Assembly (NCBI GenBank): GCA_038133845.1
Contig: JAYPUA010000015.1
Span: 2,268-66,267 of the forward strand
DNA length: 64,000 bases
Source: Deltaproteobacteria bacterium
Lineage (GTDB): Bacteria > SAR324 > NAC60-12
Direction of reading: 5' to 3'
Under the pieces are notes generated by a model. It was not told the origin of the DNA, did no database searches, and was given only the letters and a program-made list of their open reading frames with translations. Below, one piece after another: positions 46,060 through 64,000 of the stretch (positions are counted from its first letter, which is position 1; every line of letters starts with the position of its first letter). A program made the position numbers and the translations under genes.

Positions 46060-46073
46060 GCCTGCCCACTCAC

Positions 46074-46093: not shown

Positions 46094-46122
46094 CTTCACT
46101 CCGAAACAAACAGGAATGTCAC

Positions 46123-46875: not shown

Positions 46876-46887
46876 CCCCGGAGCCTT

Positions 46888-48081
46888 ATGGAAACCACAA
46901 CCATCAAAGATGTCCGGGCCTATGTTCTTGAGCAGAAGGGCTCCGGAGGCGACTACCACGACCGGGAAGCCGGGCACTGGCTGGTGGACTCGCTGATTGC
47001 CACCCCAATGTCCGGATACCCGGACTACCGGGCCTCCCGGACCAGCTTTGGCATCAACGTGATGAACAGCATCGTCGTGGAGATCGAGACCTCCAACGGC
47101 GTCCTGGGGGTCAGCGCCGGGCAGGGGGGCGCTCCAGCCTGCTACATCATCGAGAAGCACTTCAAGCGCTTCCTCTTGGGGAAGGACCCTCGGCAGGTCA
47201 ACTTGTTCTGGGACGAGATGTTCCGGGCCAGCCTGTACTACGCCGGGAAGGGCGTGCCGCTGTGGGCCTTGAGCGCTGTGGATCTTGCGCTCTGGGACAC
47301 GCTGGGCAAGCTCCGAGAAGAGCCCATCTACCAGATGATCGGTGGAAAGGTCCGTGACGAAATCTCGCTCTACTGCACCGGGGTGCGCCCGGATGTCGCC
47401 CAGGCGAACGGATTCATCGGCGGGAAGATGCCGCTCTCTCACGGCCCGGCAGATCGGCTGGAGGGGCTCAGTGCAAACTACGAGATGTTCCGGGACATGC
47501 GGGAGAAGGTGGGACCGAACTTCATGCTGATGGCAGATTGCTGGATGGCACTGGATGTTCCGTATGCCACGGAGCTGGCTCACACGCTCCGGGATCTCAA
47601 GCTCTACTGGCTGGAGGAGGTGCTGCCGCCCTACGACTTCGACGGACACACCCTGCTCAAGCAGCGCGTCCCGTGGATGCGCTGGACCACCGGCGAGCAT
47701 GAGTACACGCGCTACGGCTTCCGCAAGCTGATCGAGAGCCGGGCCGTGGACATCCTGCAGCCGGATGTGATGTGGTGCGGCGGGCTGACCGAACTGCTCC
47801 GGATCTCGGCCCTGGCCGCTGCCTATGACATCCCGGTGGTTCCGCATGGCAGCGGCGCATACAGCTACCACTTCGTGATCACCCAACCGCACTGCCCGTT
47901 CTGCGAGTACCTGAACACCAGCCCGGACTGCCTCTCGTTCCCGGCGGTCTTCGGAAACATGTTCACCAACGAGATCCTTCCGGATCAGGGGAAGATCCGT
48001 CTTGGCGATGAACCCGGCTGGGGGCTGACCCTCAATCGAGAGGCCTTGAGCCTGAAACGTCCTCATGCGGAGGAAGCATGA
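46888..48081 (+). CDS. rhmD: L-rhamnonate dehydratase (enolase superfamily)
   Basis: HW...IATPMSGYPDYRASRTSFGINV, LMADCWMAL, WLEE, TGEHEYTRYGF and QPDVMWCGG. Confidence 0.88.
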   Translation: METTTIKDVRAYVLEQKGSGGDYHDREAGHWLVDSLIATPMSGYPDYRASRTSFGINVMNSIVVEIETSNGVLGVSAGQGGAPACYIIEKHFKRFLLGKDPRQVNLFWDEMFRASLYYAGKGVPLWALSAVDLALWDTLGKLREEPIYQMIGGKVRDEISLYCTGVRPDVAQANGFIGGKMPLSHGPADRLEGLSANYEMFRDMREKVGPNFMLMADCWMALDVPYATELAHTLRDLKLYWLEEVLPPYDFDGHTLLKQRVPWMRWTTGEHEYTRYGFRKLIESRAVDILQPDVMWCGGLTELLRISALAAAYDIPVVPHGSGAYSYHFVITQPHCPFCEYLNTSPDCLSFPAVFGNMFTNEILPDQGKIRLGDEPGWGLTLNREALSLKRPHAEEA

Positions 48082-48992
48082 AGCTTTGGGACCCACACTT
48101 TCACATCTGGGATGTCTCTCCAAACACGAGCAGTGGGCACGATCCCGCCGTGCTCTTTGCTCCGGAAGACGCCCCGATCTACTCGCTCTCACGCTTGGAA
48201 GCGGACTTGGCCCCCTCCGGGCTGGAGTTGATCGGAGGAGCCTTTGTCGAGGCCACCAGCGTCTGCCACATCGCAGAGGATGGGTGGCGCTACTCCTCCG
48301 CCTGTGTTGCCGAGACCTGGTGGGGGTCCCAGCAGTTTCAGCGCTCGCCTCTGGACTACCGGATCGTCTCGGCCGCACCTCTGGAAGATCCGCAGATTCG
48401 GCAGATTCTCAGTGAACTGACGCGCTACCCGAACGTCTGTGGCATTCGACAGATCCTCAACCATGAGCCCTCCTGGCCTCGCAACGGGAGGCTCGGGAAT
48501 CTGTTCGAGAATGAGCCGTGGCGTCGAGGCTACGCCCAACTCGCAGACTTTGGACTCTCCTTTGATCTGCAGCTCAACCCGCATCAGTTCCGCCAGGCCG
48601 CAGCGCTCTCGGCACAGCATCCGGAGATTCCCTTGATCATCGGGCATCTGGGCAGTCCCACGCTGGAAGACCTGCAGAAGGGGAAGCGCTACTGGGAGGG
48701 AATGCAGGCTCTGGCAGACCTCCCCCATGCGTCCATCAAGCTCTCGATGCTTTCCTATCCGGACCGCAACTGGGAGACCAACGCCCTGGTCAAGGAGGCC
48801 GTCCTCCGGCTCATTGACCTCTTTGGTGTGGACCGCTGCTTCTTTGCCTCCAACTTTCCGGTAGAGGCCAAAGACGGCTGGCCTGCGGAGAAGCTCTTCC
48901 GGGAATTGCGCAACCTCGTCTCCTCCTTCTCTGCGGAGGAGCAGCAAAAGCTCTTTGCCACAAATGCACAGCGCGTGTATGCCCGACCCTGA
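48078..48992 (+). CDS. Amidohydrolase_2 family, probable sugar-acid lactonase
   Basis: DPHFHIW, GIRQIL, LSFDLQ, IIGHLG and FGVDRCFFASNFP. Confidence 0.8.
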   Translation: MKLWDPHFHIWDVSPNTSSGHDPAVLFAPEDAPIYSLSRLEADLAPSGLELIGGAFVEATSVCHIAEDGWRYSSACVAETWWGSQQFQRSPLDYRIVSAAPLEDPQIRQILSELTRYPNVCGIRQILNHEPSWPRNGRLGNLFENEPWRRGYAQLADFGLSFDLQLNPHQFRQAAALSAQHPEIPLIIGHLGSPTLEDLQKGKRYWEGMQALADLPHASIKLSMLSYPDRNWETNALVKEAVLRLIDLFGVDRCFFASNFPVEAKDGWPAEKLFRELRNLVSSFSAEEQQKLFATNAQRVYARP

Positions 48993-49218
48993 GCTTTGGC
49001 GAGGCACCCCACCCGGAAACGGTCCCCCTCAGGTGAGGGCCTGCTCCACGGCAGGTCAACCTGGCCTGATGCACGTCTGCTGTAGAGTGCTTGAATGGGT
49101 TGACATCTCCAAGACAGACGTGTAAAGCTTCGCATCCTGGTCCGGTTTTTTCGGACCCACTTGTCTCGGAGGAGTGAAATGACTCGCTCTCTCCGGTTTT
49201 TTCAACCAATAGGAGGTT

Positions 49219-50439
49219 TTGATGTTGTCCATGCGTAACGCCCTGCTTGGCGCCTTGTGCGTCGTGCTCTTGCCCTTTGCCGCCAGCGCCCAGAAGATCA
49301 CCTTTCTCACTCCGTCCTGGGGAGTTCCTCCGGACAAGTCGTTGCTGGAGTCCTTTCAGCGCGACTCCGGAATCACGGTGGAGATTCAGTCCGTACAGAA
49401 CAAAGACCTCTTCAGCCGGGTCCAGGTTGCCGCGGCCACTGGACAGGCTGCGGCCGATGTGATTTTCCTCACCGAAGAGGCCCCCTCAAACGTGGTGGCC
49501 ACCAATGTGATGCGCGCGCTCAACGACCTTGCGGCCAAGGACCCTCTGGAAGCAGACCTGAGAGGCCAGGAGTTCTGGCGAGTCGATGGAGAGCTTTACG
49601 GAATTCCGGTGTACTCCCAATTGGTGATGATGGACTACAACCAGGCGCGCCTTCAGCAGGCAGGTTTCAACGCTCCGCCCAAGACCTGGGCCGAGTTGAA
49701 GCGCATGGCCGAACAGCTCAAGTCCAAGGGCATCGACAAGCATCCGATCGCCATGAAGGCCAGTGACTGGTCCTGGTACCTGATCGCCCTGTCGATGGGA
49801 GATCCGATGTTTGATGACGAGCTGAACCCGGTCTTTGCCGACTCCGGATCCAAGGCGCGCCAGGCCATGAGCCTGCTGTTGGAGTTCTTCTCCGAGGAGT
49901 TGATCAGCCCGGAGATCGTCGCCGGCACCGTGAACCAGCACTCCATCTTCTGGAGTGGCTCCGGGACCTTCCATCAGGGCTGGCAGGGCTCCATCCGGGT
50001 CGGGAACAACCCGGAGCGTTCGAAGCAGGCTCCGAATGTCGCCTACATGGTCCTCCCTGAGGCCGGCAACACCTGGAGTTTCCCCGCAGCCATCGGAATT
50101 GCAGAGAACTCAAAGAACGCCGAGGCCGCCTGGAAGTTCATCCGCTGGTACACGGGAGCAGCCAACCAGAAGAGCATCTACAACGCGTTCGGCCTCTATC
50201 CGTCCCGGACCTCCGTGGCTGCCGAGTTGAACGGAGAAGGCGCAATTGCGGGCTACGGAGAGATCGTGGCTCAGGCAGATCGTGTGAACGAGCTTCCGCG
50301 CTACACCCTCTGGTGGGGCCCCTTCACGGCCAAGGTCTCGGAGACGATTCTGACCGCCGTCCAGACCGGCATGAGCGCGGATCAAACGGTCGATCAACTC
50401 GCCGAGATCTGGAACGACCTCAAGTCCGAGTACGAGTAA
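49219..50439 (+). CDS. CUT1 ABC transporter substrate-binding protein
   Basis: AGGAGG RBS, signal peptide, DGELYGIP and AAWKFIRW. Confidence 0.88.
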   Translation: MMLSMRNALLGALCVVLLPFAASAQKITFLTPSWGVPPDKSLLESFQRDSGITVEIQSVQNKDLFSRVQVAAATGQAAADVIFLTEEAPSNVVATNVMRALNDLAAKDPLEADLRGQEFWRVDGELYGIPVYSQLVMMDYNQARLQQAGFNAPPKTWAELKRMAEQLKSKGIDKHPIAMKASDWSWYLIALSMGDPMFDDELNPVFADSGSKARQAMSLLLEFFSEELISPEIVAGTVNQHSIFWSGSGTFHQGWQGSIRVGNNPERSKQAPNVAYMVLPEAGNTWSFPAAIGIAENSKNAEAAWKFIRWYTGAANQKSIYNAFGLYPSRTSVAAELNGEGAIAGYGEIVAQADRVNELPRYTLWWGPFTAKVSETILTAVQTGMSADQTVDQLAEIWNDLKSEYE

Positions 50440-50519
50440 TCGTTGCCTCGGGAACGCCTGCGGTGCTCCGTCACAAACGGCTGAGCCGCAGGCGCTCCTG
50501 CTTCGTCTGAGACCTTTTC

Positions 50520-51422
50520 ATGGGCCGCGCCTCAAGACGCGATCTGCTCTTTCTGCTGGTCATCCTCCTTCCGCTGGTCGTTCTGGTGGCGGCGCTGATC
50601 TACTATCCGGCGCTGGACACCTTCCTGACCTCGCTGACCAACGAGAACCTGCGGATCCGCCGTCCCCCAAAATTCATTGGCTGGAGTAACTACGCCAAGT
50701 TGCTGGGGCAGTCCGAGTTCTGGACCGTCACCTTGCGCTCCCTGCTCGTCGTCGCCTTGACTCTTCCGCTGGAGCTTGGGGTCGCGCTCGGGTTGGCCTT
50801 GCTCCTGACAGAGGTCTTTCCCGGACGATCCTTTGTCCGCACCCTGGTCCTCTTGCCCTGGATGCTGCCTCCGATTGTCAACGGCTTCCTCTGGGGCTGG
50901 CTGCTCAACGGAGAGTACGGGGCCCTGAACGGGCTGCTGTATCAGCTTGGGTGGATCGACGAGTACGTCACCTGGCTGCGGAATCCGGACACCCAGATTC
51001 TCTGGGTGGCGGTGGTCCAGACCTGGACCCGCTTCGCCTTCCCGACCATCATTCTGCTTGCGGGGCTGCAGTCGATCCCCACCGACTTGCTGGATGCGGC
51101 CAAAGTCGATGGTGCCTCGGCCTGGCAGAACTTCCGGCACGTGGTGTTTCCGCTGCTGCTGCCCAGCTTTGCCGTGGCCCTGACCATTGAGTTCATCGCC
51201 TCGTTCCAGATCTTTGATGTCATCTGGACTCTCACCGCCGGAGGCTCTGCAGGAGGAGCCATCAACCCGTTCACCAAAACGCTGATGCTTTACAACTACG
51301 AGCTGGTCTTCCGGGACCTGCGGATCGGGCTGGGAGCGGCGCTCTCGTACCTGATCCTCTTCCTCTCTTTGGGAGTGGCCATCGTGTTTGTCACCCGGCT
51401 CTACAACCAATCCGTTCGCTAG
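50520..51422 (+). CDS. CUT1 ABC permease (MalF-like)
   Basis: LAGLQSIPTDLLDAAKVDGASAWQNFRHVVFP (EAA loop). Confidence 0.92.
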   Translation: MGRASRRDLLFLLVILLPLVVLVAALIYYPALDTFLTSLTNENLRIRRPPKFIGWSNYAKLLGQSEFWTVTLRSLLVVALTLPLELGVALGLALLLTEVFPGRSFVRTLVLLPWMLPPIVNGFLWGWLLNGEYGALNGLLYQLGWIDEYVTWLRNPDTQILWVAVVQTWTRFAFPTIILLAGLQSIPTDLLDAAKVDGASAWQNFRHVVFPLLLPSFAVALTIEFIASFQIFDVIWTLTAGGSAGGAINPFTKTLMLYNYELVFRDLRIGLGAALSYLILFLSLGVAIVFVTRLYNQSVR

Positions 51423-51436
51423 CCACAGAGGGCCCC

Positions 51437-52321
51437 ATGACCTCACTCACACACCAGAACAGCCCCCTGCGCCTGTTGCTGATCTACGGGCTGTGCGCGC
51501 TGGCGCTCCTCTGGGCCATCGGCCCCATCTACTGGGTCGCGGTCTCGTCCATCTCCACTCGCATGGAACTGTACGCCACTCCGATCAAGTCGTGGTTTCC
51601 TTCAGAGCCGACCTGGGACGCCTACATCCGTTTGTTTTCCGGAGGAGGGCAGTACCGCGGTGGCGAGGTGAGCCCCACCGATGGGCTGATGTGGTCCGGG
51701 CTCGTCAACACCCTGATCGTCTCGATCCTCTCTGCGGTGTTGGTCACGGTGCTCTCCACGAATGCCGGCTACGTGTTTGCCCGGATGAAGTTCCGCGGGA
51801 AGGGCTTCGTCTTCTTCTTCTTGATGCTGATGATGCCTCTACCCATCTGGGTTTCCCTGATCGCCCTGTTCTTTCTGGTCAGTCAGGTGGGACTGCTGGA
51901 CACGCTGCATGGGATGATTCTGCTCTTTGTTGTCTTTCTGCTGCCGCTGGGAATCTGGCTGATGTCCACCTTCGTCCGGGAGATCAACCCGGAGATTGAG
52001 GAGGCCGCAATGGTGGATGGCTGCAACCGCTGGCAGTTGATGCGCTGGATCATCTATCCGCTCTCGAAAGCCGGGATGGCCGCTGTGTTTCTGGTCTCCT
52101 TGCTGACTGTCTGGAACAACTTTCTGCTGCCGTTGATCTTCACCCGCGGTCCGGATTCCCAGATGCTCACAGTGGTGCTTTCGCTCTTTGTCGGTCAGTA
52201 CGAGGTCGCCTGGGAAGACATGGCCGCAGCCGCCGTGGTCACCATGCTGCCTCCCTTCATCATCGCCCTCTTCTTCCAACGCTTCCTCATCCGAGGCATG
52301 ACCCTGGGAGCCGTCAAGTGA
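51437..52321 (+). CDS. CUT1 ABC permease (MalG-like)
   Basis: EIEEAAMVDGCN, WNNFLLP and FQRFLIRGMTLGAVK. Confidence 0.92.
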   Translation: MTSLTHQNSPLRLLLIYGLCALALLWAIGPIYWVAVSSISTRMELYATPIKSWFPSEPTWDAYIRLFSGGGQYRGGEVSPTDGLMWSGLVNTLIVSILSAVLVTVLSTNAGYVFARMKFRGKGFVFFFLMLMMPLPIWVSLIALFFLVSQVGLLDTLHGMILLFVVFLLPLGIWLMSTFVREINPEIEEAAMVDGCNRWQLMRWIIYPLSKAGMAAVFLVSLLTVWNNFLLPLIFTRGPDSQMLTVVLSLFVGQYEVAWEDMAAAAVVTMLPPFIIALFFQRFLIRGMTLGAVK

Positions 52322-53892
52322 GTACAGACCTTGAAACGCTGGCCAGCCGAGCCGGAGAACTCTTCCTGCTGGCCTTTGCCGGAAGCGACCCTGCCCCGGC
52401 ACAGCAGATGATCCGCAACTATCACCTCTCCGGGCTCTACCTGAGCAACGACAACATCCCGGACACCTCGTCGGCCCGAGCCTTGACGAAAGCGGTTCAG
52501 GAGACGGCTCGCGACTCCGGAGAGGCCTTCCCGCTGCTGCTCGGAGTCGACCAGGAAGGAACCTGGTCGGTCATGGCCACCGACTCACATCCCGGACCGG
52601 GAAACCTCGCGCTGGGTGCTGCAGGAGCTCCGGAGTTGACCCACGCTCGCTACCGAGACCTGGCGCTGGAACTGCGGCAGAATGGGCTCAACCTCCTGCT
52701 TGCGCCCTGTGCCGATGTCAACACCAACCCGCACAACGCAATCATCGGCATGCGCTCCTTCGGCACCCATCCGGAGGCTGTCGGGAAACACGTCGCTGCC
52801 GCAGTGCAGGGAGCGCGCTCGGGAGGAGCCCTCAGCACCCTCAAGCACTTTCCGGGACATGGAGACACGCTGGTGGATTCCCACCGCGACCTGCCCACCG
52901 TCAGCCGCAGCCGAGAGGATGTCTGGGACATCGACCTGGCCCCCTTCCGGTGTGGAATTGAGGCCGGGGTTGACCTGGTGATGACCTCACACATCTGCTT
53001 CGATGCGCTCGATCCGGACACCCCCGCGACGTTCTCCCGAAAGATCTTGCACGACCTGCTGCGAAAGGAGATGGGCTTTTCCGGGCTGGTGATCTCGGAC
53101 TCGATGAACATGCACTCGCTGCGCAAGCACTTCGACCCGGTCGAGGCTGCCGTCCGGGCGATCTCTGCTGGAGTCGACCTGATCATGCTGGCCGAAGAGC
53201 ACTACGACCATGACGGCGCCTACCAGACTCGACAGCGCCAACTCATCGAAGGACTGGCTGCAGAAATTCGCAAAGGACGCATCCCGGAAGCACGTCTGGA
53301 AGAAGCATTGAACCGAATTCAGGCCGTCAGGAAGTCTCTGAGTTCCGCCACTCCGGACACCTCTGCAGACTTTGCTCAGAGCGCAATTCAGGCAGCACGG
53401 CAGGCCCTGAGGGTCCACCATCAGAACCCCCGGTGGCGCTCCCCGCAGCCGGGCGCCACGGTTCGCCTGATACGCTCCTCCCCCGACTCCGCGTTCCTTG
53501 CCGCAACCCAGACCCGAGGAATCGGCCCAAACCCTCAGTGCTCGGCCTTTGATGCCCTGCACAAGGCGCTGGAACCGCATTTCTCTGTACACCTTCAACC
53601 TCCGTTTGCAGCGGTTTCCCAGGAAGATCCGGTGGTCTTGGTACTGGAAAACTACACCCTCCCCGGAGCGGATTTTGACCGCTCCCGCGACCCGGAGGTC
53701 ATCCGCTGGGCGCAGTCGCTTGACCCGGCACAGGTCACCGTGATCGCTCTGCGGGATGCGTTTGAGTTGGTGGAGACGCATCCGCTGACCACGCTGTGCG
53801 CCTACAGCTTCCGGGAAGAGTCTGCAGAGCAGGCGGCGCTGTGGCTTGCCGGGCAGGTCCCGGAAGTTCGGAAAGGAGGAGCCTTTGGGTAA
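52318..53892 (+). CDS. GH3 beta-N-acetylhexosaminidase (NagZ-like), no signal peptide
   Basis: GVDQEG, APCADVNTNP...IGMRSFG, KHFPGHGDT..DSH and ISDSMNM. Confidence 0.88.
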   Translation: MSTDLETLASRAGELFLLAFAGSDPAPAQQMIRNYHLSGLYLSNDNIPDTSSARALTKAVQETARDSGEAFPLLLGVDQEGTWSVMATDSHPGPGNLALGAAGAPELTHARYRDLALELRQNGLNLLLAPCADVNTNPHNAIIGMRSFGTHPEAVGKHVAAAVQGARSGGALSTLKHFPGHGDTLVDSHRDLPTVSRSREDVWDIDLAPFRCGIEAGVDLVMTSHICFDALDPDTPATFSRKILHDLLRKEMGFSGLVISDSMNMHSLRKHFDPVEAAVRAISAGVDLIMLAEEHYDHDGAYQTRQRQLIEGLAAEIRKGRIPEARLEEALNRIQAVRKSLSSATPDTSADFAQSAIQAARQALRVHHQNPRWRSPQPGATVRLIRSSPDSAFLAATQTRGIGPNPQCSAFDALHKALEPHFSVHLQPPFAAVSQEDPVVLVLENYTLPGADFDRSRDPEVIRWAQSLDPAQVTVIALRDAFELVETHPLTTLCAYSFREESAEQAALWLAGQVPEVRKGGAFG

Positions 53893-54931
53893 CCCCTCCC
53901 GCTCCGCCTCCCTGTCTCGGTTGGCCTATCCCGGTTCCGGATGGGCGGTCGCTTTGGGCTCCGAGAACGCGTGGCAGGTCGAATGCTTTGGAACCACCGG
54001 TCCGTCCGGAGCGGCGATCACGGAGTCCACGCTCTTTGACGTCGCCTCGCTGACCAAGGTGGTGGCCACGCTCCCGGCATGCCTGGTGCTGATGAAAGCC
54101 GGGGAGTTGGACCTGGACCGTCCGCTCCGAGAGTACATCTCCAGCATTGGCTGGTTCCAGGAGCCGTCGCTGGGATCCGTGACCGCCCGACAGCTCCTGA
54201 CCCACATCAGCGGACTTCCTGCATGGAAACCGCTGTTTGCGCAGTCCTCCAACCGCTCCGTGCTGGCCGCCGCAGTTCTGCAGTCGACGGTCGGACCTCC
54301 GGGCAAACGGGAGTACAGCGACCTCGGCCTGATTCTGCTCGGACACCTGATTGAGTTGCTCTCCGGGAAGCCTCTGGATCAGTTTGTCGACCAGCAGGTG
54401 CTGCAGCCTCTGGGCATGCACCACACCGGGTTCAACCCGCAAGAGCGCTGGCCGGGAGTCGAGTGTGTGGCCACCGAGCGCTGCGGGTGGCGCAAAATGC
54501 TGCTTCAGGGAGTGGTGCATGACGAGAACGCCTTCGCGCTCGAGGGCGTCTCCGGACACGCCGGACTGTTCTCCAGCGTCCGTGACCTCGCACGATACCT
54601 GGAGGCCTGGCTGAACGAGCTGGCTCCGCTGGAGTTGGAGGCTCAGGCCCGGGAGATCTTCCAGACCGTGTCCACTCCCGGCGGAGCCCCGGAGTATGGG
54701 CTCGGATGGCGAGTGGCTCCTGGGCTCGATTTCTCTGGCCCAGGCAATCGCCCGGGAGCGTTTGGGCACACCGGCTATACCGGAACCAGCCTCTGGTTTC
54801 ATCCGGAGGCACAGCAGGCCCTCGTGCTGCTCAACAACCGTGTCTACCCGACCCGGGTCGGAACCGACTCGGCCATTCATGCGCTTCGCCAGCAGGTGCA
54901 CGAGCACTTTTTGCGCGATCGCATTCGCTGA
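53885..54931 (+). CDS. Serine hydrolase, beta-lactamase family (AmiE/YbbE-like)
   Basis: FDVASLTKV (SxxK), LLTHISG, YSDLG, VHDENA..L.GVSGHAGLF and GHTGYTG. TTG start after GGAGGAG. Confidence 0.85.
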   Translation: MGNPSRSASLSRLAYPGSGWAVALGSENAWQVECFGTTGPSGAAITESTLFDVASLTKVVATLPACLVLMKAGELDLDRPLREYISSIGWFQEPSLGSVTARQLLTHISGLPAWKPLFAQSSNRSVLAAAVLQSTVGPPGKREYSDLGLILLGHLIELLSGKPLDQFVDQQVLQPLGMHHTGFNPQERWPGVECVATERCGWRKMLLQGVVHDENAFALEGVSGHAGLFSSVRDLARYLEAWLNELAPLELEAQAREIFQTVSTPGGAPEYGLGWRVAPGLDFSGPGNRPGAFGHTGYTGTSLWFHPEAQQALVLLNNRVYPTRVGTDSAIHALRQQVHEHFLRDRIR

Positions 54932-55086
54932 AATCAGGTCTCAGGCCTCCTCGGAGCCTCAGGCTTTTTTCTTTGCAAGATTTTCAGGCTGCACGTACTC
55001 TGCAACCCAGCCTTGAGGCCCGGCTTCATCCGGACTGCAGAGGCGCAGGCTTGATCGCATCACAATCTTTTTTTCTGGAGAATCAC

Positions 55087-56055
55087 ATGCACTTGCTCAT
55101 CACCGGCGCCGCGGGAATGCTGGGCCGCAAATTTGTGGAACGCCTCATCAAGGAGCCCGAGCTTGGAGGCCGTGAGGTGACGCGACTGACACTGGTCGAC
55201 CTCGGGACGCCGGAGGGATTCGAGGCGTTTTCAGGAACCTGCGAGGCGCAGGGAGTGGATTTGGGAGAGCCTGGCGTGGCCGACCAGTTGGTCGCCCAGC
55301 GTCCGGACATGATCTTCCACCTTGCCGCCGTGGTTTCCGGAGAGGCCGAGGCCGACTTCGAGAAGGGCTACCGGGTCAATCTGGACAGCACCCGCATGCT
55401 GCTGGAGGCCGTCCGGGCACAGGACAACTACAAACCTCGCTTCGTCTTCGCCTCGTCGATTGCCGTCTATGGCGCGCCGTTCCCGGATCCGATTCATGAT
55501 ACCCACCACCTCACCCCGCTCACCAGCTACGGGACCCAGAAGGCGATCGGCGAACTGCTGCTTGCAGACTACTCTCGCCGGGGATTTCTGGAAGGCATCG
55601 GGCTGCGCCTGCCAACACTGTGCATCCGCCCGGGCAAGCCCAACAAGGCGGCCTCCAGCTTCTTCTCCGGGATCTTGCGCGAGCCGCTGAATGGGAAGGA
55701 GGCCCTCCTCCCGGTTTCTGAAGACGTCCGGCACTGGCACGCCAGCCCGCGTGCTGCGGTCGGTTTTCTGGTACATGCCGCCTCGCTGGACCTGGGCCGT
55801 GTGGGGACCGCCTGCAACCTGAGCATGCCCGGGCTGTGCGCCACGGTTCGCGAACAGATTGAGGCGCTCGATCGCGTGGCCGGTCCGGAAGCGGTCAAGC
55901 TGATCCGACGTGAACCGGATCCGGTGGTGCAGAAAATTGTCGCCGGGTGGCCCCAGTGCCTCGACCCGCAACGGGCGCTGTCACTGGGCTTTCAGGCGGA
56001 GACGACCTTCGACGAGATCATCCGGGTGTACCTGGAGGAGGAGAAAGGGGAGTAG
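55087..56055 (+). CDS. denD: D-erythronate dehydrogenase-like NAD-dependent epimerase/dehydratase
   Basis: TGAAGMLG, FHLAAVVSGEAEADF, PLTSYGTQKA, LRLPT..IRPGKPNKAASSF and IVAGWP. Confidence 0.8.
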   Translation: MHLLITGAAGMLGRKFVERLIKEPELGGREVTRLTLVDLGTPEGFEAFSGTCEAQGVDLGEPGVADQLVAQRPDMIFHLAAVVSGEAEADFEKGYRVNLDSTRMLLEAVRAQDNYKPRFVFASSIAVYGAPFPDPIHDTHHLTPLTSYGTQKAIGELLLADYSRRGFLEGIGLRLPTLCIRPGKPNKAASSFFSGILREPLNGKEALLPVSEDVRHWHASPRAAVGFLVHAASLDLGRVGTACNLSMPGLCATVREQIEALDRVAGPEAVKLIRREPDPVVQKIVAGWPQCLDPQRALSLGFQAETTFDEIIRVYLEEEKGE

Positions 56056-56065
56056 CCCCGAAGAC

Positions 56066-57367
56066 TCAAGGGAGCAGATCGCGCAGGCGAAAGTAGGCCA
56101 TGGCGAGCACGAGGGAAGGCATGCGGAGCAGCTTGCCTCCCGGAAAGTCGGAGTGTGGGATGCGGCTGAAGACATCGAACCGTTCGGCCGATCCGGCGAC
56201 CCCTTCCGCCATCAGCTTCCCGGCCAGGGGCGCCATCGCCACCCCATGTCCGGAGAAGCCTTGGGCATACAGCACGTTGGGGGCCAGCCACCCCAGGTTT
56301 GGAGCCCGGTTCATGGTGATCCCGACAAACCCGCCCCAGGCATACTCCATCCGAGCCTCCTGAAGCTGAGGGAACACCAGCAGCATCCGCTCCCGCATGG
56401 CCTCCGCCAGATTCCGAGGCTCCATGGTCGAGTAGCTCACCCGCCCTCCAAAGAGCATTCGGTGGTCGGCCGAGAGCCGGTAGTAGTCCAGAACAAAGTT
56501 GATGTCGGCCACCGCCATGTTGTCGCGGATCAGTTCTCGGGCACGTGCCTCGCCCAGCGGCTCCGTGGCGCCGATGTAGGTCCCAACCGGCATCAGTCGC
56601 CTCCGGAGTGGACGTGACACCTCGCCAAGGTAGGCGTTCCCCGCCAACACCACAAACTTTGCCCGCAACGTCCCCCGGTCCGTGCGGATCCTCGCCGGGT
56701 CTCCAGCCTCCACCTCATGCACCGCAGTCGACTCGTGAATCACCGCGCCCGCACGCTCTGCGGCCTCGGCCAGCCCCAGCGTGAAGTTCAGCGGATGCAG
56801 GTGCCCGCTGTTCGGGTCAAAGAGCCCCGTGCGGTAGCGCTCCGTCTGAATCCGCTCACGCAGTTCGTCGCCCTCCCAAAGCTCCAGTCCGGAGTAGCCA
56901 TACTCGCTCTCCAGGTCCTCTTTCCAGGCATGAAGGTCCTCGCTCTGCCGAGGCTTGATCGCCGCGTGCATCTGTCCTTGAACCAGGTCGCATTCAATCT
57001 GGTGAGTGCCCACCAGCTCCCGGACCAGCTCCAGGGACTCCAAGGACATCTTCCAGAGCTTGAGGGAGTCCTCACGTCCCACCAGGCTGCGCATCACCGG
57101 CATGTCGCAGCTGAAACCGAAGATGAACTGTCCTCCGTTGCGTCCGGAGGCCCCCCAGCCGACCCGCTGAGCCTCAAGCACCTTCACCCGGTAACCATGC
57201 TCGGCAAGGTGCAAGGCCGCCGAAAGCCCGCACAGTCCGGCCCCCACCACGCACACGTCCGTCTCCTCCTCTCCGGAAAACGCCGGCCTCGCAGGGGCAC
57301 GATGTGCCGAGGCCGCATAGTACGAGTTCGGATGCTCAGAGGTGAGGGAGGCGGAAGGTGCAGTCAT
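56066..57367 (-). CDS. puuB: Gamma-glutamylputrescine oxidase-like FAD oxidoreductase
   Basis: SYYAAS, VVGAGLCGLSAAL, GASGRNGGQ, LHPLNFTLGLA and QGFSGHGV. Confidence 0.82.
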   Translation of the reverse strand: MTAPSASLTSEHPNSYYAASAHRAPARPAFSGEEETDVCVVGAGLCGLSAALHLAEHGYRVKVLEAQRVGWGASGRNGGQFIFGFSCDMPVMRSLVGREDSLKLWKMSLESLELVRELVGTHQIECDLVQGQMHAAIKPRQSEDLHAWKEDLESEYGYSGLELWEGDELRERIQTERYRTGLFDPNSGHLHPLNFTLGLAEAAERAGAVIHESTAVHEVEAGDPARIRTDRGTLRAKFVVLAGNAYLGEVSRPLRRRLMPVGTYIGATEPLGEARARELIRDNMAVADINFVLDYYRLSADHRMLFGGRVSYSTMEPRNLAEAMRERMLLVFPQLQEARMEYAWGGFVGITMNRAPNLGWLAPNVLYAQGFSGHGVAMAPLAGKLMAEGVAGSAERFDVFSRIPHSDFPGGKLLRMPSLVLAMAYFRLRDLLP

Positions 57368-57491
57368 GAATGCCTGGAGAACGAAGGGACCTCCGGGACG
57401 GAAGCCGGAGGTCTCGGGGATTTCTGATCAGCTGGGTGGAGGAACGAGGCCCAGCACTTCAGTGTGGAGGATGCCCGAAAGGAGCGCAAGC

Positions 57492-58847
57492 TCAGAGCGT
57501 CTTCAGGTACCAGTCGTATTCAAGCGGATGGAAGAACTCCTGGAAAAGTTCCTGCTCTCCCCGCTTGAAGTTGGAGAACAGGCGCCAGAAGTCGCGCCCC
57601 AGCGCCTCCGGGAGGACCTGGGCGTTTTCAAACGCCAGGGTCGCCTGCTCCCAGCTTCGAGGCAGATCCGGCCCGAGCGAGTAGGCATCTCCCATCACAG
57701 GAGGCGGAGGCTCCAACTCCTTGTTGATCCCGTGCTCCAGGCCCACCAGCAGGATGGCCACCAACAGGAACGGGTTCGCTCCGGCTCCGGCCAGCCGATG
57801 CTCGATGCGCGTCGACTCCGGGAGTCCGGCAGGAATCCGCAAGGCGGTGGTTCGGTTGTTCCAGCCCCAAGTCCGGTTGCAGGGGGCGAAGGACCCTGGC
57901 TTGAAGCGCTGGTAGGAGTTCGCGTGCGGTGCACAGATCAGCATCGACTCCCTCATCAGATCCAGGATTCCGGCAATCGCGTGCTTGAGGGTCTTGCTCC
58001 CGTAGACGTCCTCGCCTTGAAAGAGGTTCTTGCCGTGCTCATCGAGCAAGCTCAGGTGCACATGCATCCCGTTTCCGGCCTGGTCCTGATAAGGCTTGGG
58101 CATGAAGGTCGCCTCCATGTCGTGACGCAGGGCCACGTTGCGGATGATGTGCTTGAGCATCAGGGCCTGTCCGCAGGCGAGCACCGGATCGGTCACGTGC
58201 TGCAGGTTCACCTCGAACTGCCCGGCATCCAGTTCGGCCACCGCGGTGTCTGCCGGGATGCCAAGGTCGTGTGCAGCACGCTGTACCTCCTTGAGGAAGG
58301 CTCCGTACGTGTCCAGCGCCCGGAAGGAGTACAGCTGGCTCTCCTTCTCGCGCACTCCGGTTCTCGGAGAGCGAGGCGGCTGCGGGAGGCCTTGACGGGT
58401 GAGCAGCTTGTCGATCAGGTAGAACTCCATCTCAATCGCCACCACCGGGGTGATCTTGCGCTCCTGAAAGCGTCGAACCACCGACTCCAACACCGTCCGG
58501 GGGTCACCGTAGTACCACCCGCCGCTGTCGCCTTCCATGCGCAGCTGCACCTGAGCAAGCCCCGGATGCCAGGGCACCACGCTGAAACTCTCCGGAATGA
58601 GCTGGCACCGACTGTCGCCATCACCGCTGGCAAACCCCAGCCCGGTACGTTCAATCGTCTGTCCGGTCACGCTGAGCCCAAACACCGAGGTTGGCATGAA
58701 GGCACCTTCCGAAAAGATCTTGGGAAGTTTGGCCACGGAAACCCGCTTGCCCCGGAAAATCCCGTGCATGTCGGCAATCTGCAGATCCACAAATTCCAGT
58801 TCCGGATGCTCGGAGAGCACCCGGTTGATGGTTTCCTCGTTGTTCAT
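57492..58847 (-). CDS. puuA: Glutamine synthetase-like gamma-glutamylpolyamine synthetase
   Basis: DMHGIFRGK, EMEFYL, ELDAGQFEVNL, TFMPKPY, GNGMHVHLSL, NSYQRF, WGWNNRT and RIEHR; paired with puuB. Confidence 0.8.
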   Translation of the reverse strand: MNNEETINRVLSEHPELEFVDLQIADMHGIFRGKRVSVAKLPKIFSEGAFMPTSVFGLSVTGQTIERTGLGFASGDGDSRCQLIPESFSVVPWHPGLAQVQLRMEGDSGGWYYGDPRTVLESVVRRFQERKITPVVAIEMEFYLIDKLLTRQGLPQPPRSPRTGVREKESQLYSFRALDTYGAFLKEVQRAAHDLGIPADTAVAELDAGQFEVNLQHVTDPVLACGQALMLKHIIRNVALRHDMEATFMPKPYQDQAGNGMHVHLSLLDEHGKNLFQGEDVYGSKTLKHAIAGILDLMRESMLICAPHANSYQRFKPGSFAPCNRTWGWNNRTTALRIPAGLPESTRIEHRLAGAGANPFLLVAILLVGLEHGINKELEPPPPVMGDAYSLGPDLPRSWEQATLAFENAQVLPEALGRDFWRLFSNFKRGEQELFQEFFHPLEYDWYLKTL

Positions 58848-58886
58848 TTTAGGGGTGTTGAGAGAAGAGGGGGGCGGCGGGAGCCG

Positions 58887-59258
58887 TCAGCACTGGCGTT
58901 CCAGAGCACGGTTCCGGTAGGCCTTTTCGCGGTTCACGTCCTTTTGGGTAGGCAGACGCGGGGGAGGCGTGCCCTGAAGCATCTGGCGGAGGCGATGCTG
59001 CTGCCCATAGGAGAGCGGGATTCCCTTGCGCTTCCGGTTCCACGCGTCCAGTTCCATCATCCGTTGATGCTCTCCCGTGAACTGAGGCCGCTCCAGTTCC
59101 TCTTCCACTTCACGTTGCACCTTGTTCCGGCAGTTGGTCTTGAAGTGCTCTTTGAGAAACAGCCGATCCGTCGCATACTCCTGCGCTTGGGTCCACCCCG
59201 CAGAGAGGGCTCCTGCAAGGAGCAGCAAGGGAAGGAGCAGCAAGGGTCTGAAAAGCAT
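58887..59258 (-). CDS. Secreted hypothetical protein (123 aa)
   Basis: Signal peptide MLFRPLLLLPLLLLAGALSAGWTQA. The longer 220-aa ORF extension is judged spurious. Confidence 0.7.
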   Translation of the reverse strand: MLFRPLLLLPLLLLAGALSAGWTQAQEYATDRLFLKEHFKTNCRNKVQREVEEELERPQFTGEHQRMMELDAWNRKRKGIPLSYGQQHRLRQMLQGTPPPRLPTQKDVNREKAYRNRALERQC

Positions 59259-59272
59259 TTTTCGATCGGGGC

Positions 59273-59300
59273 TCAAGTTTTTGCCAGAAGTTGCCGATAA
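59273..59300 (+). promoter_or_regulatory. Sigma28-type promoter
   Basis: TCAAG-N15-GCCGATAA, with a perfect -10 box. Confidence 0.7.
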
Positions 59301-59304
59301 CGCA

Positions 59305-59825
59305 GTTAAGGATTGCCTTACCTTCAGGAAGGCAAGCAAATTTAACGCCCGAAATCCGTGCCGGCTCTCTTTGGGGAAATCAAGCTTTCCCAGAGAACGG
59401 CTGGATTCCAGTGTGTTTGTTCTTGGAAATCCCGAACCGAGTTCCTCTAGGCTTGCGCAGAGCCGCAGGAGAAACAAGTCGAACCACAGGGAACCGTCTC
59501 TTTCAGGACACCTCTCTGCGGGCCGGATGGGTTTGTTCTGGCTTCGCACAGTCCTCTTGACCTTGGCCAGGCTCCCTTGTGTCGATTTGCCTGAACGCCG
59601 GAGGGGTGGTTTCTCCCCTTCCCAAGTTCAGCCCAAGGCAAGAACTTGAGCGGGGAGCATTGCCCCCGCAGGTCAGATGTTGAGACCTGCAAGCAGACTG
59701 GGTCGAGGAACGTTACCCAACTGCAAGAAGGCTGGGTCGAGGAACGATACCCAACTGCAAGCACTCCTTGGAAAAGGAGAGCGCTGTGTTGTCGGGAATT
59801 CAGGAACCGTATTCTTTTTTTCATC
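59305..59825 (+). ncRNA. Candidate GGA-rich structured RNA (CsrB/RsmZ-like) or long leader
   Basis: Consecutive stem-loops, many AGGA/GGA motifs, no credible same-strand ORF, U-run at 59815-59822. Confidence 0.45.
59687..59762 (+). repeat. Tandem repeat, 2 x 34 nt plus partial third unit
   Basis: CTGCAAGCAGACTGGGTCGAGGAACGTTACCCAA / CTGCAAGAAGGCTGGGTCGAGGAACGATACCCAA, 31/34 identical. Confidence 0.9.
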
Positions 59826-59865
59826 CCCTTTACGGGGTTCATCCTTTAACATGGAGAAGAGCGTC

Positions 59866-60090
59866 ATGACGCCATCGGAACAGAAGATCGAACAGTACCA
59901 TGCGATCGTCGGAGACGATACCAGCTATCGCTTTGAGCACAAGATCGCTCAGGCGGTTCAGGAACTGGCAGAGTCCTTGGAGAACAACTTCATGGACGAT
60001 GAGGCCAAAGTCGACTATGCCACCCACGTGTTCGCAAAAATGCTGGACGATCTCGCAGACTTTCTGGAAAATCCTCGCTTGATCAATTGA
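59866..60090 (+). CDS. Small acidic helical hypothetical protein (74 aa)
   Basis: GGAG RBS, protein-like composition, TGA overlaps the next ATG. Confidence 0.7.
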   Translation: MTPSEQKIEQYHAIVGDDTSYRFEHKIAQAVQELAESLENNFMDDEAKVDYATHVFAKMLDDLADFLENPRLIN

Positions 60091-61481
60091 TGGGAACTCC
60101 TTCGCCCGAGGCTCTTCGGGCGTGGCTGGAGCAACAACGCCTGCGACATGGACTCCAACTGTTTGGAGTCAGCTTCCTCGGAGCCGCCTCCGGGTTGCTG
60201 GTGCTGTTTCTCTGGTCAGACTCTCCGGCTCTGGAGCACTGGTTCCTGGCCAACCTGGCGCTCCTGTTGCTGTGCCTCGCAGGAAGCTGGTCTCTCAGCG
60301 AGCGCTTCTTCTCCTCACGACTCGCCCGGAAACATCCGGAACTTGCCGAGTCCCTGAGAACCCTGCAAGACCTGGAGTCCACTTCGGCCTCAGGGCCGGA
60401 GTTTGTCTTCTTCCGAGAGCAGCACCGGCGTCGGACCGAGCAGAGCCTGCAGGGCCCTGCCTCCGGGTTTCGCTCCTCCTGGAAGGGGCCCTTCGCGCTG
60501 GCGGTGCTGGTGCAGTGCCTGTGGTTCGCGGCGCTCTGGTGGGTGCCCGGAAATCCGGAATTTCTCGCTTGGCGAGACGGACCGCCGGTGAACCTGCAGG
60601 AATCCTATCGCCTCCTCTACCCCTCCTACTTGAACCGAGAGCCCCTGGTCTTGGAGCAGCTTCCGGAACGCCTCTCTCTTCCACAGGGAACCCGGCTGGA
60701 GATTTTGGCCGCGGAAGCCCCGGAAGACCGCAGCCGCTTTGAAATTCCCGGTCGGAAGCCGGAGCCTCTGCGCTGGTTTGAACAGCAGGGGCACTGGATG
60801 ACCGCCATCGCCCCGGACCTCTCCGGAATCCTGACCTTGCAGTGGAAACGCCTGCAACTTCCGGTTGAGGTCGTCCCGGATCAGGCGCCGGAGCTGCTGG
60901 TCATCTGGCCCAGCCTGGAGCACATCTTCGACAGTTCTCCCCTGCCTGTGGACCTGAGCACTTCAGACGATCATGCGCTGCTCAACATCATCCTTCACTA
61001 TCAGGTGGAGTTGACCGGAGATCCCTACCGAGAGATCATCCAAGCCTTCGAGACCCCTGTCCGGGAGCATCAGGAACTGTACATCTGGGAGCTCTCCGGG
61101 ACGCCGCTCAAGGCCGGAGACAACGTCACCGCCTGGATCGAGGTCAGCGACCGGGACACGCTGAACGGGCCGCACATTGCGCGATCCCAGGAGTTTCGCT
61201 TTCAGGTGGAGAGCCTCAAGGAGTTCCACGAGCGGTTGCTCGCCAAGTTCTGGAAGGTCGACGAGGAGCTGCGCACACTCCTGGGATATCTGGACCAAAA
61301 GGTCCTTCCAGAGACCGCCCTCCAGGAAGAGGCGATCGACGCGCTGCTTGAAGAGATCCAGCGGGACATGGTGTGGGACCTGCTGCTCTCAGATGCCCTC
61401 AAGAACCTGACCCGGGAGATGCGCTCCAAGCTTGAATACTACCGAGAGCAGCGACAGCTTTCCGGCTCGCGTCCCAGCTAG
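60087..61481 (+). CDS. Membrane-anchored protein, DUF4175-like
   Basis: N-terminal TM pair; VVPDQAP, SDDHAL and W.EVSDRDTLNGP...S.EF motifs. Confidence 0.65.
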   Translation: MMGTPSPEALRAWLEQQRLRHGLQLFGVSFLGAASGLLVLFLWSDSPALEHWFLANLALLLLCLAGSWSLSERFFSSRLARKHPELAESLRTLQDLESTSASGPEFVFFREQHRRRTEQSLQGPASGFRSSWKGPFALAVLVQCLWFAALWWVPGNPEFLAWRDGPPVNLQESYRLLYPSYLNREPLVLEQLPERLSLPQGTRLEILAAEAPEDRSRFEIPGRKPEPLRWFEQQGHWMTAIAPDLSGILTLQWKRLQLPVEVVPDQAPELLVIWPSLEHIFDSSPLPVDLSTSDDHALLNIILHYQVELTGDPYREIIQAFETPVREHQELYIWELSGTPLKAGDNVTAWIEVSDRDTLNGPHIARSQEFRFQVESLKEFHERLLAKFWKVDEELRTLLGYLDQKVLPETALQEEAIDALLEEIQRDMVWDLLLSDALKNLTREMRSKLEYYREQRQLSGSRPS

Positions 61482-61536
61482 ACCTCCCCAAAAATCATCT
61501 AAAAGATTAGAGGTTTAAACCTTCAGAGAAGAAGCC

Positions 61537-61564
61537 TTGACCTGTAACTTCTCTCCTGTAGAAT
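61537..61564 (+). promoter_or_regulatory. Sigma70-type promoter
   Basis: TTGACC-N16-TAGAAT, ~100 nt upstream of a small ORF. Confidence 0.55.
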
Positions 61565-61664
61565 TGACGCTAGTCAGCTTAAATGGATTTAGGCCGCGGT
61601 ACGCATTGGAAGCAGTCAGGAGTTCTGTCCGAACAGAGCCTCACCCTCCTTTCAATGAGGTCGC

Positions 61665-61751
61665 ATGATGAAATTCCTGGAGGTCGTTGAGCCCATTGCC
61701 GCCATCTTTGCCTTTCTTGGCACGATCGCGACTTTCGCCTTCTTCTACTGA
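61665..61751 (+). CDS. 28-aa single-helix membrane peptide MMKFLEVVEPIAAIFAFLGTIATFAFFY
   Basis: GAGG RBS, hydrophobic helix, own promoter; below the ORF-track cutoff. Confidence 0.6.
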   Translation: MMKFLEVVEPIAAIFAFLGTIATFAFFY

Positions 61752-61966
61752 GCGCATGACCTCATCGTCTGGTGCGCTGCTCTTGCGCCCAACTCGGAGA
61801 CTCAGGGGTGGCCTCTCATCGGGCAGACCACTGAGCCTCTGAGTCCAGGCCTCCCTTCTTCACGCCCTTTCCTCCAGCTTCTTCAAGCCCTACACGTCAT
61901 CGCCTGAAACCGGCAGACCCCCCTATGGCAGGTTGCGCAAGCCAGCCTTGAGACAAGCGCTGCCGT

Positions 61967-63898
61967 TCATTTCGAAGGGATTTCTCCGGCGAGATGTTCT
62001 GGCAAACCGGACTCTGTCTGAGAGAGTTTCTGGATCAAGTCTTCCGGGATGTCATCGAACGAGGCGTAGTTGAGCGAGTAGAGCCGGGCGTAGAGTCCCC
62101 CCAGTTCCATCAACTCGCCATGACTTCCAGTCTCAATGATCTGCCCGTCCTGCAGAACGATGATCTGGTCGGCCTTGCGCACCGTCGCCAGTCGGTGTGC
62201 AATGATCAGGGCGGTTCGATTTTCCAGCAGCCGGTCCAAGGCTTCCTGCAGCAACCGCTCGCTCTTCGAGTCGATTGATGCCGTGGCCTCGTCGAGGATC
62301 AGCAGCGGCGCGTTGGTCACCAGCGCCCGCGCAAAGGAGATCAACTGGCGCTGCCCAAGCGAGAGGTTGGACCCACGCTCTTCCACGACCGTTTCGTAGC
62401 CGTTGGGCAGGGCGCTGATGAACTCGTGTGCCCCCACGATCTTCGAGGCCCGGATGACGTCCTCCCGACTGGCGGAGGCGGTGTTGTAGCGGATGTTCTC
62501 CAGGAGTGAGGTGGAGAAGAGGTAGGGTTCCTGAAGGACCATCGCGATCTGGCGGCTCAGTGAATCCTGGGTCAGGCTCCTGATGTCGTGGCCGCCAATC
62601 CGGATCTGCCCCTCAAAGGTGTCGTAGAAGCGGTGGATCAGTGAGGCGATTGAGGATTTCCCACATCCGGTGGGTCCGACCAGGGCCACGGTCTTTCCTT
62701 CCGGAATCTCCAGGTGGATCTGACGCAGCACCGGATACTGAGGGTTGTAGCCGAAGGTCACGTCCTCAAAGTCTACCGACCCGCTGGTACGGCCAACGTC
62801 TTGTGCAGAGGGACTGTCCGTAATCCCTACCGGGACATCGAGCACCTCGAAGATGCGCTCTCCGGAAGCCATGGCGCGCTGGAAGGCGTTGTAATGCAGC
62901 GTGAGCGCCCGGATCGGGTCAAAGAACCGCTGAACGTACAGGATGTAGGCGATCATGACCCCGGCGGTCAGTTCGCCCTGCAGCACCAGGCTGCCTCCCA
63001 CCAGGGCGATGATCGCCATGGCCACGCCGGTCAGGGTGTCCACCGTGGGGAGCATGATCTGCGCGATGGCCGCCGCCCGGACTGTGGCCACAAAGTGATC
63101 GTTGGCCTTGATCTCATAGAGATCGCGGTTGACCCGCTCTCGGGTCATGCCCTGAACCACCTTGATGCCCCGGATGTTCTCACACATCGTCGCCGTGACC
63201 ACGGACGACGTGATCCGGGCGCGCACAAAGGCCTTGCGCGCAATCGGGAGCCAGTAGATCCGGATGATCAGCAAAACCGGAAGCAAGGCCAGGGTCATGG
63301 CTCCCAGGCGCAGGTCCATCCAAAGCAGGACAAAGATGATTCCAAACAGCAGGATCAGGTCCCCAATCGCATAAACCAGCGCCTCCAGAAACTCCTGAAG
63401 CGCCCCGACGTCTCCTTGCAGGCGTGACATCAGCCGTCCGGTTTCGGTCTTGTCCATGAACGACAGGGAGACGCGTTGCAGGTGTTCAAACATTCCGCGA
63501 CGGAGGTCGAAGAGCAGTCGCTGGGCAACCCGGGAGACCAGCAGTTCCATACCAAAGTGGCTCATGAAGTTCACAAGAACCACCAAGGCAAAGAGCAGAA
63601 TGCCGAACTCCAAGGAGCTGAGATTGGACAGTCCCCCGAGCTCTCCATCCAAGGTCTTTTGGATGATGAGGGGGAACAGGACCTGCGTCAGGGTGTAGAC
63701 CATGAGCCCCAACACTGCAATCAGCACGGTCTTCCGGTAAGGATGAATGAGGTCCAGAAACCGCTTCACCACATCCTGGTTGTAACCTGAGCTGAACATG
63801 TCCTCTTCGGCCACCTCCGGAGGGGGAGCAACCGCCCCAGGAGGCAAGGGATCGTCCGCCAGGTGGCGGTGCATGAAGAGCAGGGAGCGCTGGCTCAT
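61967..63898 (-). CDS. ABC exporter (TMD+NBD half transporter, MsbA/multidrug type)
   Basis: TM domain, GPTGCGKSS, LSLGQRQLISFARA, ILDEATASID and IAHRLAT. Confidence 0.93.
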   Translation of the reverse strand: MSQRSLLFMHRHLADDPLPPGAVAPPPEVAEEDMFSSGYNQDVVKRFLDLIHPYRKTVLIAVLGLMVYTLTQVLFPLIIQKTLDGELGGLSNLSSLEFGILLFALVVLVNFMSHFGMELLVSRVAQRLLFDLRRGMFEHLQRVSLSFMDKTETGRLMSRLQGDVGALQEFLEALVYAIGDLILLFGIIFVLLWMDLRLGAMTLALLPVLLIIRIYWLPIARKAFVRARITSSVVTATMCENIRGIKVVQGMTRERVNRDLYEIKANDHFVATVRAAAIAQIMLPTVDTLTGVAMAIIALVGGSLVLQGELTAGVMIAYILYVQRFFDPIRALTLHYNAFQRAMASGERIFEVLDVPVGITDSPSAQDVGRTSGSVDFEDVTFGYNPQYPVLRQIHLEIPEGKTVALVGPTGCGKSSIASLIHRFYDTFEGQIRIGGHDIRSLTQDSLSRQIAMVLQEPYLFSTSLLENIRYNTASASREDVIRASKIVGAHEFISALPNGYETVVEERGSNLSLGQRQLISFARALVTNAPLLILDEATASIDSKSERLLQEALDRLLENRTALIIAHRLATVRKADQIIVLQDGQIIETGSHGELMELGGLYARLYSLNYASFDDIPEDLIQKLSQTESGLPEHLAGEIPSK

Positions 63899-63906
63899 GG
63901 TTCCGT

Positions 63907-64000
63907 TCAGTCCAGAGTTTGCAGTCGATAGAGCTGGGCATAGTGTCCTCCGAGCTTGAGGAGTGCCTCGTGGTCTCCTTGCTCTTGAATCTGCCCGTGC
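63907..64000 (-). CDS. C-terminus of an upstream ABC half transporter (truncated by window edge)
   Basis: Reads HGQIQEQGDHEALLKLGGHYAQLYRLQTLD*, a typical NBD tail. Confidence 0.8.
   Translation of the reverse strand, partial: HGQIQEQGDHEALLKLGGHYAQLYRLQTLD

Follow-up and report, generated by a model that had tools for sequence, protein, structure and literature searches.

We have analyzed the 485-bp gap between two convergent genes in a 64-kb stretch of SAR324 DNA, referred to here as the window. On one side of the gap lies a gene for a 464-aa protein (+ strand, stop at 61481) and on the other a gene for an ABC half-transporter (61967-63898, - strand). The gap holds a small ORF, and the features that belong to it are as follows.

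61537-61564, + strand: sigma-70-type promoter, TTGACC-16 nt-TAGAAT, 10/12 matches, with no strain polymorphism inside it
61571-61664, + strand: 5' leader of about 94 nt, covered by RNA contigs of nine metatranscriptomes
61596-61664, + strand: leader hairpin, -25.2 kcal/mol, z = -2.83, 0/200 shuffles as stable
61657-61660, + strand: Shine-Dalgarno (SD) core GAGG, 4 nt before the ATG at 61665 and 7 nt before the ATG at 61668
61665-61751, + strand: small ORF for the 28-aa peptide MMKFLEVVEPIAAIFAFLGTIATFAFFY, or for 27 aa if the start is at 61668; stop codon TGA at 61749-61751
61751-61790, + strand: variable proximal 3' UTR, containing the 'anti-RBS' CATGACCTCAT (61755-61765) of the original prediction
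61792-61844, either strand: 53-nt stem-loop with GACTCAG/CTGAGTC, -29.7 kcal/mol, 0/200 shuffles as stable

The sigma70 promoter that had been claimed for this ORF is present at 61537-61564 (TTGACC-16-TAGAAT, 10/12). The scan returned this one site where 0.2 were expected in shuffled sequence, and it is one of 3 sites with at least 10/12 matches on both strands of the whole window. Transcription is predicted to start near 61571-61573, which places about 94 nt of leader before the ATG at 61665, in agreement with the ~95 nt first proposed. The strings quoted in the original prediction also lie where they had been located (CCTCA at 61639-61643, TGAGG at 61656-61660, ATGAGGTCGCATG at 61655-61667 and CATGACCTCAT at 61755-61765). 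The 55-nt spacer that separates the upstream gene from the promoter (61482-61536) has 6 variable sites among the strains described below and is the most polymorphic stretch seen. It contains a perfect 12-nt palindrome, AGGTTTAAACCT, at 61511-61522, which is struck by two of the SNPs.

Two adjacent ATGs, at 61665 and 61668, open the small ORF. The 28-aa peptide has a short acidic N-terminus followed by a Pro and then by an 18-residue hydrophobic helix that reaches the C-terminus; its GRAVY is 1.55 over the full length and 2.07 over the C-terminal 18-residue hydrophobic stretch. The original prediction of a small membrane-type peptide behind a promoter agrees with these values, and the locus is a stand-alone gene with long structured UTRs. 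It was also correct that the peptide lacks a basic C-tail: the net charge is -1, the sole basic residue is K3 and the C-terminus is FFY. A codon log-odds score trained on 39 long ORFs in the window gives the small ORF 14.25 bits, higher than any other of the window's 394 ORFs of 20-45 aa and at the 87th percentile of 28-codon pieces taken in frame from true genes; the two other + strand frames across it have negative scores. Its GC content at the three codon positions is 0.46/0.32/0.75, and the GC3 of real genes is 0.72. The SD/anti-SD duplex is predicted at -6.2 kcal/mol, compared to a median of -6.3 over the window's 39 long genes. In JGI/IMG, gene calling on 3 contigs gave the identical 28-aa protein. 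Four independent lines of evidence, namely codon usage, the SD, strain-level selection and transcription, support the small ORF as a real gene. It is unlikely to be the remnant of a larger membrane-protein gene, since the frame is open for 30 codons only and has its own promoter, SD and ATG, and a phmmer search revealed no parent family.

The small ORF is crossed by a contig in all 9 of the 9 metatranscriptome runs examined, and it is the only part of 44001-64000 that was found in all 4 of the salt-marsh runs compared there. Contig depth over the small gene is 2.8-7.2, compared to 2.5-8.6 over the flagellin region in the same runs. The pattern of contigs is patchy and gene-specific, which points to RNA rather than DNA carry-over. 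In the RNA runs with the small gene, hardly anything of the exporter gene was detected. The strand of a Logan contig is not recorded, and the evidence for transcription is thus unstranded. The RNA contigs reach their 3' limits at 61856-61884. In three separate salt-marsh metatranscriptome runs their 5' limits are at 61592, 61593 and 61596, some 21 nt past the predicted start, in the interval that separates a first small leader hairpin from the main one; these limits could represent a processed 5' end or simply low coverage. Contigs from seawater runs go back as far as 61529-61552 and suggest that transcripts of the upstream operon read through. Elsewhere in the window, a long leader at 59327-59669 is found in several metatranscriptome runs and carries many strain SNPs and 1-nt indels, consistent with a region that is expressed but weakly constrained. 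The flagellin/flagellar region (6001-26000) is broadly covered in 4/4 salt-marsh RNA runs, indicating that the organism is transcriptionally active and apparently motile in situ.

Strain variation was assessed on contigs from about 20 metagenome and metatranscriptome runs, all of which share at least 99% identity with the window. The 215 nt that run from the -35 box to the stop codon (61537-61751) have 1 polymorphic site, and 270 nt of non-coding DNA on the flanks have 14 (Fisher p = 0.0025; Poisson 1.7e-4). The single site is 61574 T>C, the only change in the 94 nt of the leader, and the 87 nt of the ORF have 0 SNPs. Variation starts again at 61757, 5 nt past the stop codon, and 61752-61800 is the most variable part of the transcript. 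Purifying selection at the strain level is thus bounded by the promoter and the stop codon. Since no homologue was found that could reveal selection on the amino acids, and the ORF lacks synonymous variants as well, the constraint could act on the RNA; strains this similar, with an ORF free of SNPs, offer variation too shallow for a comparison of synonymous and non-synonymous changes. The ORF and the leader are equally invariant, and this suggests that the RNA itself has some function.

The small gene is located exactly at a break in synteny (61481-61967). In the relatives, a DUF4175-like block abuts tsaB/tsaE and the exporter pair abuts Iso_dh or EamA; in the source genome these two conserved blocks meet and the small gene occupies the point of contact, so that the relatives have no orthologous intergenic region to compare. 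In the closest relatives of the upstream 464-aa gene (57-58% identity) a convergent tsaB-like gene overlaps its 3' end, and the small ORF is absent from these loci (related loci L001-L004). Orthologues of the exporter (78-81% and 69% identity) are followed 44-67 nt downstream by a co-directional Iso_dh or EamA gene, and none of these loci (L006-L012) has a convergent small ORF downstream. One ABC homologue, at 68% identity, is named as from SAR324 cluster bacterium. The original prediction had allowed, as a fallback, that the peptide is a small accessory subunit of the convergent exporter; orthologous exporters at 78-81% and 69% identity do without the small gene, which makes such a role unlikely, and we rejected the peptide as a subunit or cargo of the ABC exporter on synteny.

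Searches by sequence likewise identified the gene in one population only. Comparisons by tblastn and blastn to the window and 12 related loci gave chance matches only (the best, with E = 1.3 in L012, lies outside any ORF) and no second copy of the small gene in the 64-kb window. DNA patterns written for the amino-acid classes of residues 9-27 or 2-19 had 0 matches in genome contigs and metagenome contigs. A phmmer search with the 30-residue in-frame translation against 1.84 billion representatives returned only the identical 28-aa protein, which forms a JGI/IMG singleton cluster, and the 28-aa peptide had no match in Pfam, NCBIfam, PDB, plasmid and phage searches; a query of 28 aa is insensitive and ORFs of fewer than 30 codons are seldom called, so that this absence of homologues is weakly informative. 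Other identities for the locus were considered and rejected: a mobile element, as there are no flanking repeats; a RiPP precursor, as there are no adjacent genes for maturation enzymes; and a pheL-like Phe attenuator, suggested by the Phe-rich C-terminus TFAFFY, as the next gene is convergent and a U-run terminator was not found.

The transcript has predicted structures at both ends. The leader hairpin has pair probabilities of 0.6-0.99 in both of the alleles that were folded, and its 3' basal arm takes in half of the SD, with G61657 and G61659 paired and A61658 and G61660 free. The leader also contains a CU-rich sequence, CTCACCCTCCTTTC, at 61640-61653, 4-17 nt upstream of the SD. This sequence is nearly that of the 3' end of 16S rRNA, a mimic of the anti-SD; the predicted fold pairs it with GGAAGCAG (61608-61615) and not with the SD. 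Downstream of the ORF, the proximal 3' UTR is polymorphic at 61757, 61764 and 61781, and has a 4-nt deletion at 61779 and a minor indel at 61767/61770. The original prediction also placed further stems 3' of the ORF (GACTCAG/CTGAGTC), and these form the significant hairpin at 61792-61844, with z = -3.06 on the + strand and -3.60 on the - strand. There is no U-run after this stem-loop, and a terminator scan revealed no canonical terminator. It is probably a 3'-end or terminator structure, and possibly one that is shared with the convergent ABC operon. A deletion of A61800 among the strains removes a predicted bulged base, which is consistent with the stem-loop being maintained. Directly 3' of it is a direct repeat, CTTCTTCACGCCCT / CTTCTTCAAGCCCT, with a spacing of 23 nt (61855-61891). 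A search of 59000-64000 against Rfam 15 gave no match at E<=1, and a search at E<=10 only eukaryotic noise, far under the gathering scores.

A central claim of the original prediction was that this mRNA folds back on its own ribosome-binding site (RBS), in the manner of a silenced type I toxin. We computed the partition function of the predicted transcript (61571-61890) for the reference and for the common variant allele (61574C, 61757G, 61764C). The strings of the proposed local hairpin over the RBS, CCTCA and TGAGG, are present, but they pair with a probability of 0.00-0.01 in both alleles, and forcing the hairpin costs +5.4 kcal/mol in the reference and +3.0 in the variant. The proposed 3' fold-back, of 61755-61765 on 61655-61667, is no better supported, with pair probabilities of 0.00-0.01 in both alleles and forcing costs of +5.6 kcal/mol (reference) and +9.7 (variant). 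It is also not conserved: 61757 (T>G) and 61764 (A>C) vary in three haplotypes with no compensating change in 61655-61667, and in the common allele the changed 'anti-RBS' base is predicted to prefer an internal GGAGGTC (61679-61685) to the SD. Dinucleotide shuffling of the 3' region yields an 8-nt complement to the SD/start region 133 times in 5000 (2.7%; p about 0.03), and the whole 290-nt transcript is not more stable than its shuffles (z = -1.08). Opening the ribosome-binding region (-20 to +15) is predicted to cost 13.4-15.9 kcal/mol, at the 23rd-38th percentile of 39 ordinary genes of the window (median 18.6), a percentile that is approximate as the start codons of the comparison genes were picked automatically. 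The predicted mean unpaired probability is 0.40 for the SD and 0.48 for the start codons. Since this opening cost is average for a GC-rich window, the ribosome site does not appear to be unusually closed, and in these models the SD is not sequestered in a stable structure of the primary transcript. Silencing of the type I toxin kind is thus not borne out: the fold-back is neither predicted nor kept among strains, and the ribosome site is averagely accessible.

The peptide might still be a type I toxin that depolarises the inner membrane and whose translation is limited by the structure of its mRNA and by an antisense RNA that has escaped detection. We regard this as unlikely. The structure would be the leader hairpin, which processing of the 5' end near 61592 might relieve or set up; candidates for the antisense RNA include the 3' end of the transcript of the convergent ABC operon and an sRNA whose promoter departs from the consensus. 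Much of the outward profile does fit, taking the defining features of such toxins from two published accounts (PMC8309996 and PMC5416894). The peptide is small and hydrophobic with one helix, and would be classed with hydrophobic peptides of <60 aa that have a predicted transmembrane helix; its gene has a separate promoter, long UTRs for so short an ORF and an abundant mRNA, and the significant leader hairpin takes in part of the SD. A stand-alone orphan hydrophobic ORF with long structured UTRs and a variable position in the genome is typical of type I systems, and the gene is an orphan at a synteny break. The salt-marsh contig starts at 61592, 61593 and 61596 could mark a processed 5' end. 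Cationic residues are generally found at the C-terminus of type I toxins and are absent here, but this is no bar, since IbsC, ShoB and DinQ also do without a basic tail (PMC8309996). Against a toxin, in addition to the lack of a predicted or conserved 5'-3' fold-back and the average accessibility and SD strength, are the net charge of -1 with no cationic tail, the lack of a second copy in the 64-kb window and the lack of any minus-strand promoter-like site of at least 8/12 in 61480-62000 from which an antisense RNA could be transcribed (the RNA contigs themselves being unstranded). Furthermore, a near-consensus promoter and a transcript level like that of flagellin, with no visible repression, would be hazardous for a toxin gene.

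Comparison to individual toxin systems leads in the same direction. The mRNAs of aapA1/IsoA1 of Helicobacter pylori and of hok/Sok are silenced by a long-distance 5'-3' interaction that hides the SD (PMC5416894). The small gene resembles these in its peptide of ~30 aa, its mRNA of ~250-300 nt and its own promoter, and its reference allele has an 8-nt complement to the SD region just past the stop codon; it differs in that the long-distance pairing has a probability of ~0 at a cost of +5.6 to +9.7 kcal/mol, two of the pairing bases vary uncompensated, an antisense promoter was not found and there is no similarity at the family level. In zorO/OrzO and tisB/IstR-1 of E. coli a structure in the 5' UTR blocks access of the ribosome until the 5' end is processed (PMC8309996). 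Here the likeness is in a hydrophobic peptide of 27-29 aa, a long and structured 5' UTR whose stable hairpin reaches the SD, and RNA contig starts at 61592-61596 that hint at a shorter 5' end; unlike those genes, however, the small gene has a ribosome site predicted to be no less accessible than that of average genes, no divergent or overlapping sRNA gene is visible and the gene is single copy in the window.

A further resemblance is to the Ibs peptides of E. coli, which are almost wholly hydrophobic, start with MMK and end in an aromatic Tyr. The 28-aa peptide shares with IbsC/SibC (19 aa) the nearly complete hydrophobicity, the MMK start, the final Tyr and the lack of a basic C-tail; but the ibs genes are multi-copy and fully overlapped by the abundant antisense Sib RNA, neither of which is seen here. 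The resemblance is compositional, with no sign of homology. Overall, none of the testable regulatory hallmarks of type I toxins can be clearly recognised at the small gene in the sequence and the unstranded RNA contigs. No type I toxin module was described for the SAR324 lineage in the literature searched, and the existence of one here, made up of an abundant stable mRNA and an anionic membrane peptide of 27/28 aa, seems to us distinctly improbable.

Two other explanations concern the RNA and the neighbouring exporter. The ~300-nt transcript might be a regulatory small RNA, non-coding or of dual function, that base-pairs through regions such as the CU-rich, anti-SD-like 61640-61653 or the CU-rich part of the ORF, with the ORF incidental or secondary. 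The invariance of the leader (1 SNP in 94 nt, as in the ORF), the two significant hairpins, the high abundance and the lack of synonymous variants that would prove selection on the protein all agree with such an RNA, as does a likeness to dual-function sRNAs (SgrS/SgrT, AzuCR/AzuC with 28 aa, RNAIII/delta-toxin) in the short abundant transcript, the tiny ORF and the conserved non-coding parts. In contrast to these RNAs, conservation tracks the boundary of the ORF rather than the whole transcript, ending right after the stop codon with 61752-61800 the most variable part, and no pairing target or seed was identified. The codon-usage score and GC3 periodicity are moreover those of a genuine gene, the SD is at the correct spacing and a match to Rfam is absent even at E<=10, and we consider a regulatory RNA to be an unlikely explanation. 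Far less credible is a link to the convergent heterodimeric ABC exporter, which would either secrete the hydrophobic peptide, as a signal or bacteriocin-like product, or include it as an accessory subunit. A distance of 215 nt separates the ORF from the 3' end of the MsbA/HlyB-like pair of half-transporters, and the peptide is without a signal peptide, so that secretion would need a dedicated exporter. The orthologous exporter pairs (78-81%, 69% identity), however, have no such ORF downstream, the exporter is without a peptidase domain and its gene is barely detected in the RNA runs that have the small gene. The peptide also differs from leaderless bacteriocins and from amphipathic modulins in being anionic and hydrophobic throughout.

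The explanation that we favour, with about an even chance of being right, is that the locus is an orphan gene for a single-helix membrane protein of 27/28 residues, which is independently transcribed and abundant and which acts on a larger membrane protein. Bacterial membrane proteins of fewer than 50 aa include YohP (27 aa), KdpF (29 aa), MgtS (31 aa), CydX (37 aa) and AcrZ (49 aa) of E. coli (PMC12648545). The 28-aa peptide resembles YohP, KdpF and the others in its size, its one hydrophobic helix, its very short termini, its lack of a signal peptide and its ordinary translation signals, as well as in a presumed helix-to-helix binding to a larger membrane protein. It differs from them in having no sequence similarity to known families (Pfam, NCBIfam and PDB were empty), in being encoded outside the operon of a partner and not co-conserved with one in the related loci compared, and in being a monocistronic gene with unusually long UTRs that is confined to one species-level population.

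For this small membrane protein gene we propose the following sequence of events. The strong sigma-70-type promoter would direct a monocistronic mRNA of about 280-310 nt, made up of the 94-nt leader with its stable hairpin, an ordinary SD, the short ORF and a 3' UTR that ends in the large stem-loop. The two terminal structures most likely shield this short mRNA from RNases and would thereby maintain its high steady-state level. Both the strength of the SD and the cost of exposing the ribosome site are those of an average gene of this genome, so that the presence of the mRNA is probably enough for the peptide to be made. K3 near the N-terminus and a hydrophobic helix that runs to the C-terminal Tyr would, by the positive-inside rule, lead to insertion in the inner membrane with the N-terminus in and the C-terminus out. 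There the peptide most likely binds a larger membrane protein through its helix and modulates it, as other bacterial small membrane proteins do. Judging from the arrangement of orthologous loci, this partner would not be the neighbouring ABC exporter, and a role as a silenced pore-forming toxin is improbable.

The small gene opens no new mechanism, and the main practical value of the analysis is that the toxin-style RNA fold-back proposed for it is unsupported. If the ORF is translated, it adds one more lineage-restricted small membrane protein to those already known. At 87 nt it falls under the usual minimum of gene callers, and small genes of this kind are thus routinely missed in annotation. 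The source organism belongs to an abundant, uncultured marine and estuarine group, and in environmental samples the level of the small-gene transcript is about that of flagellin mRNA, which suggests that this gene is important to the cell.
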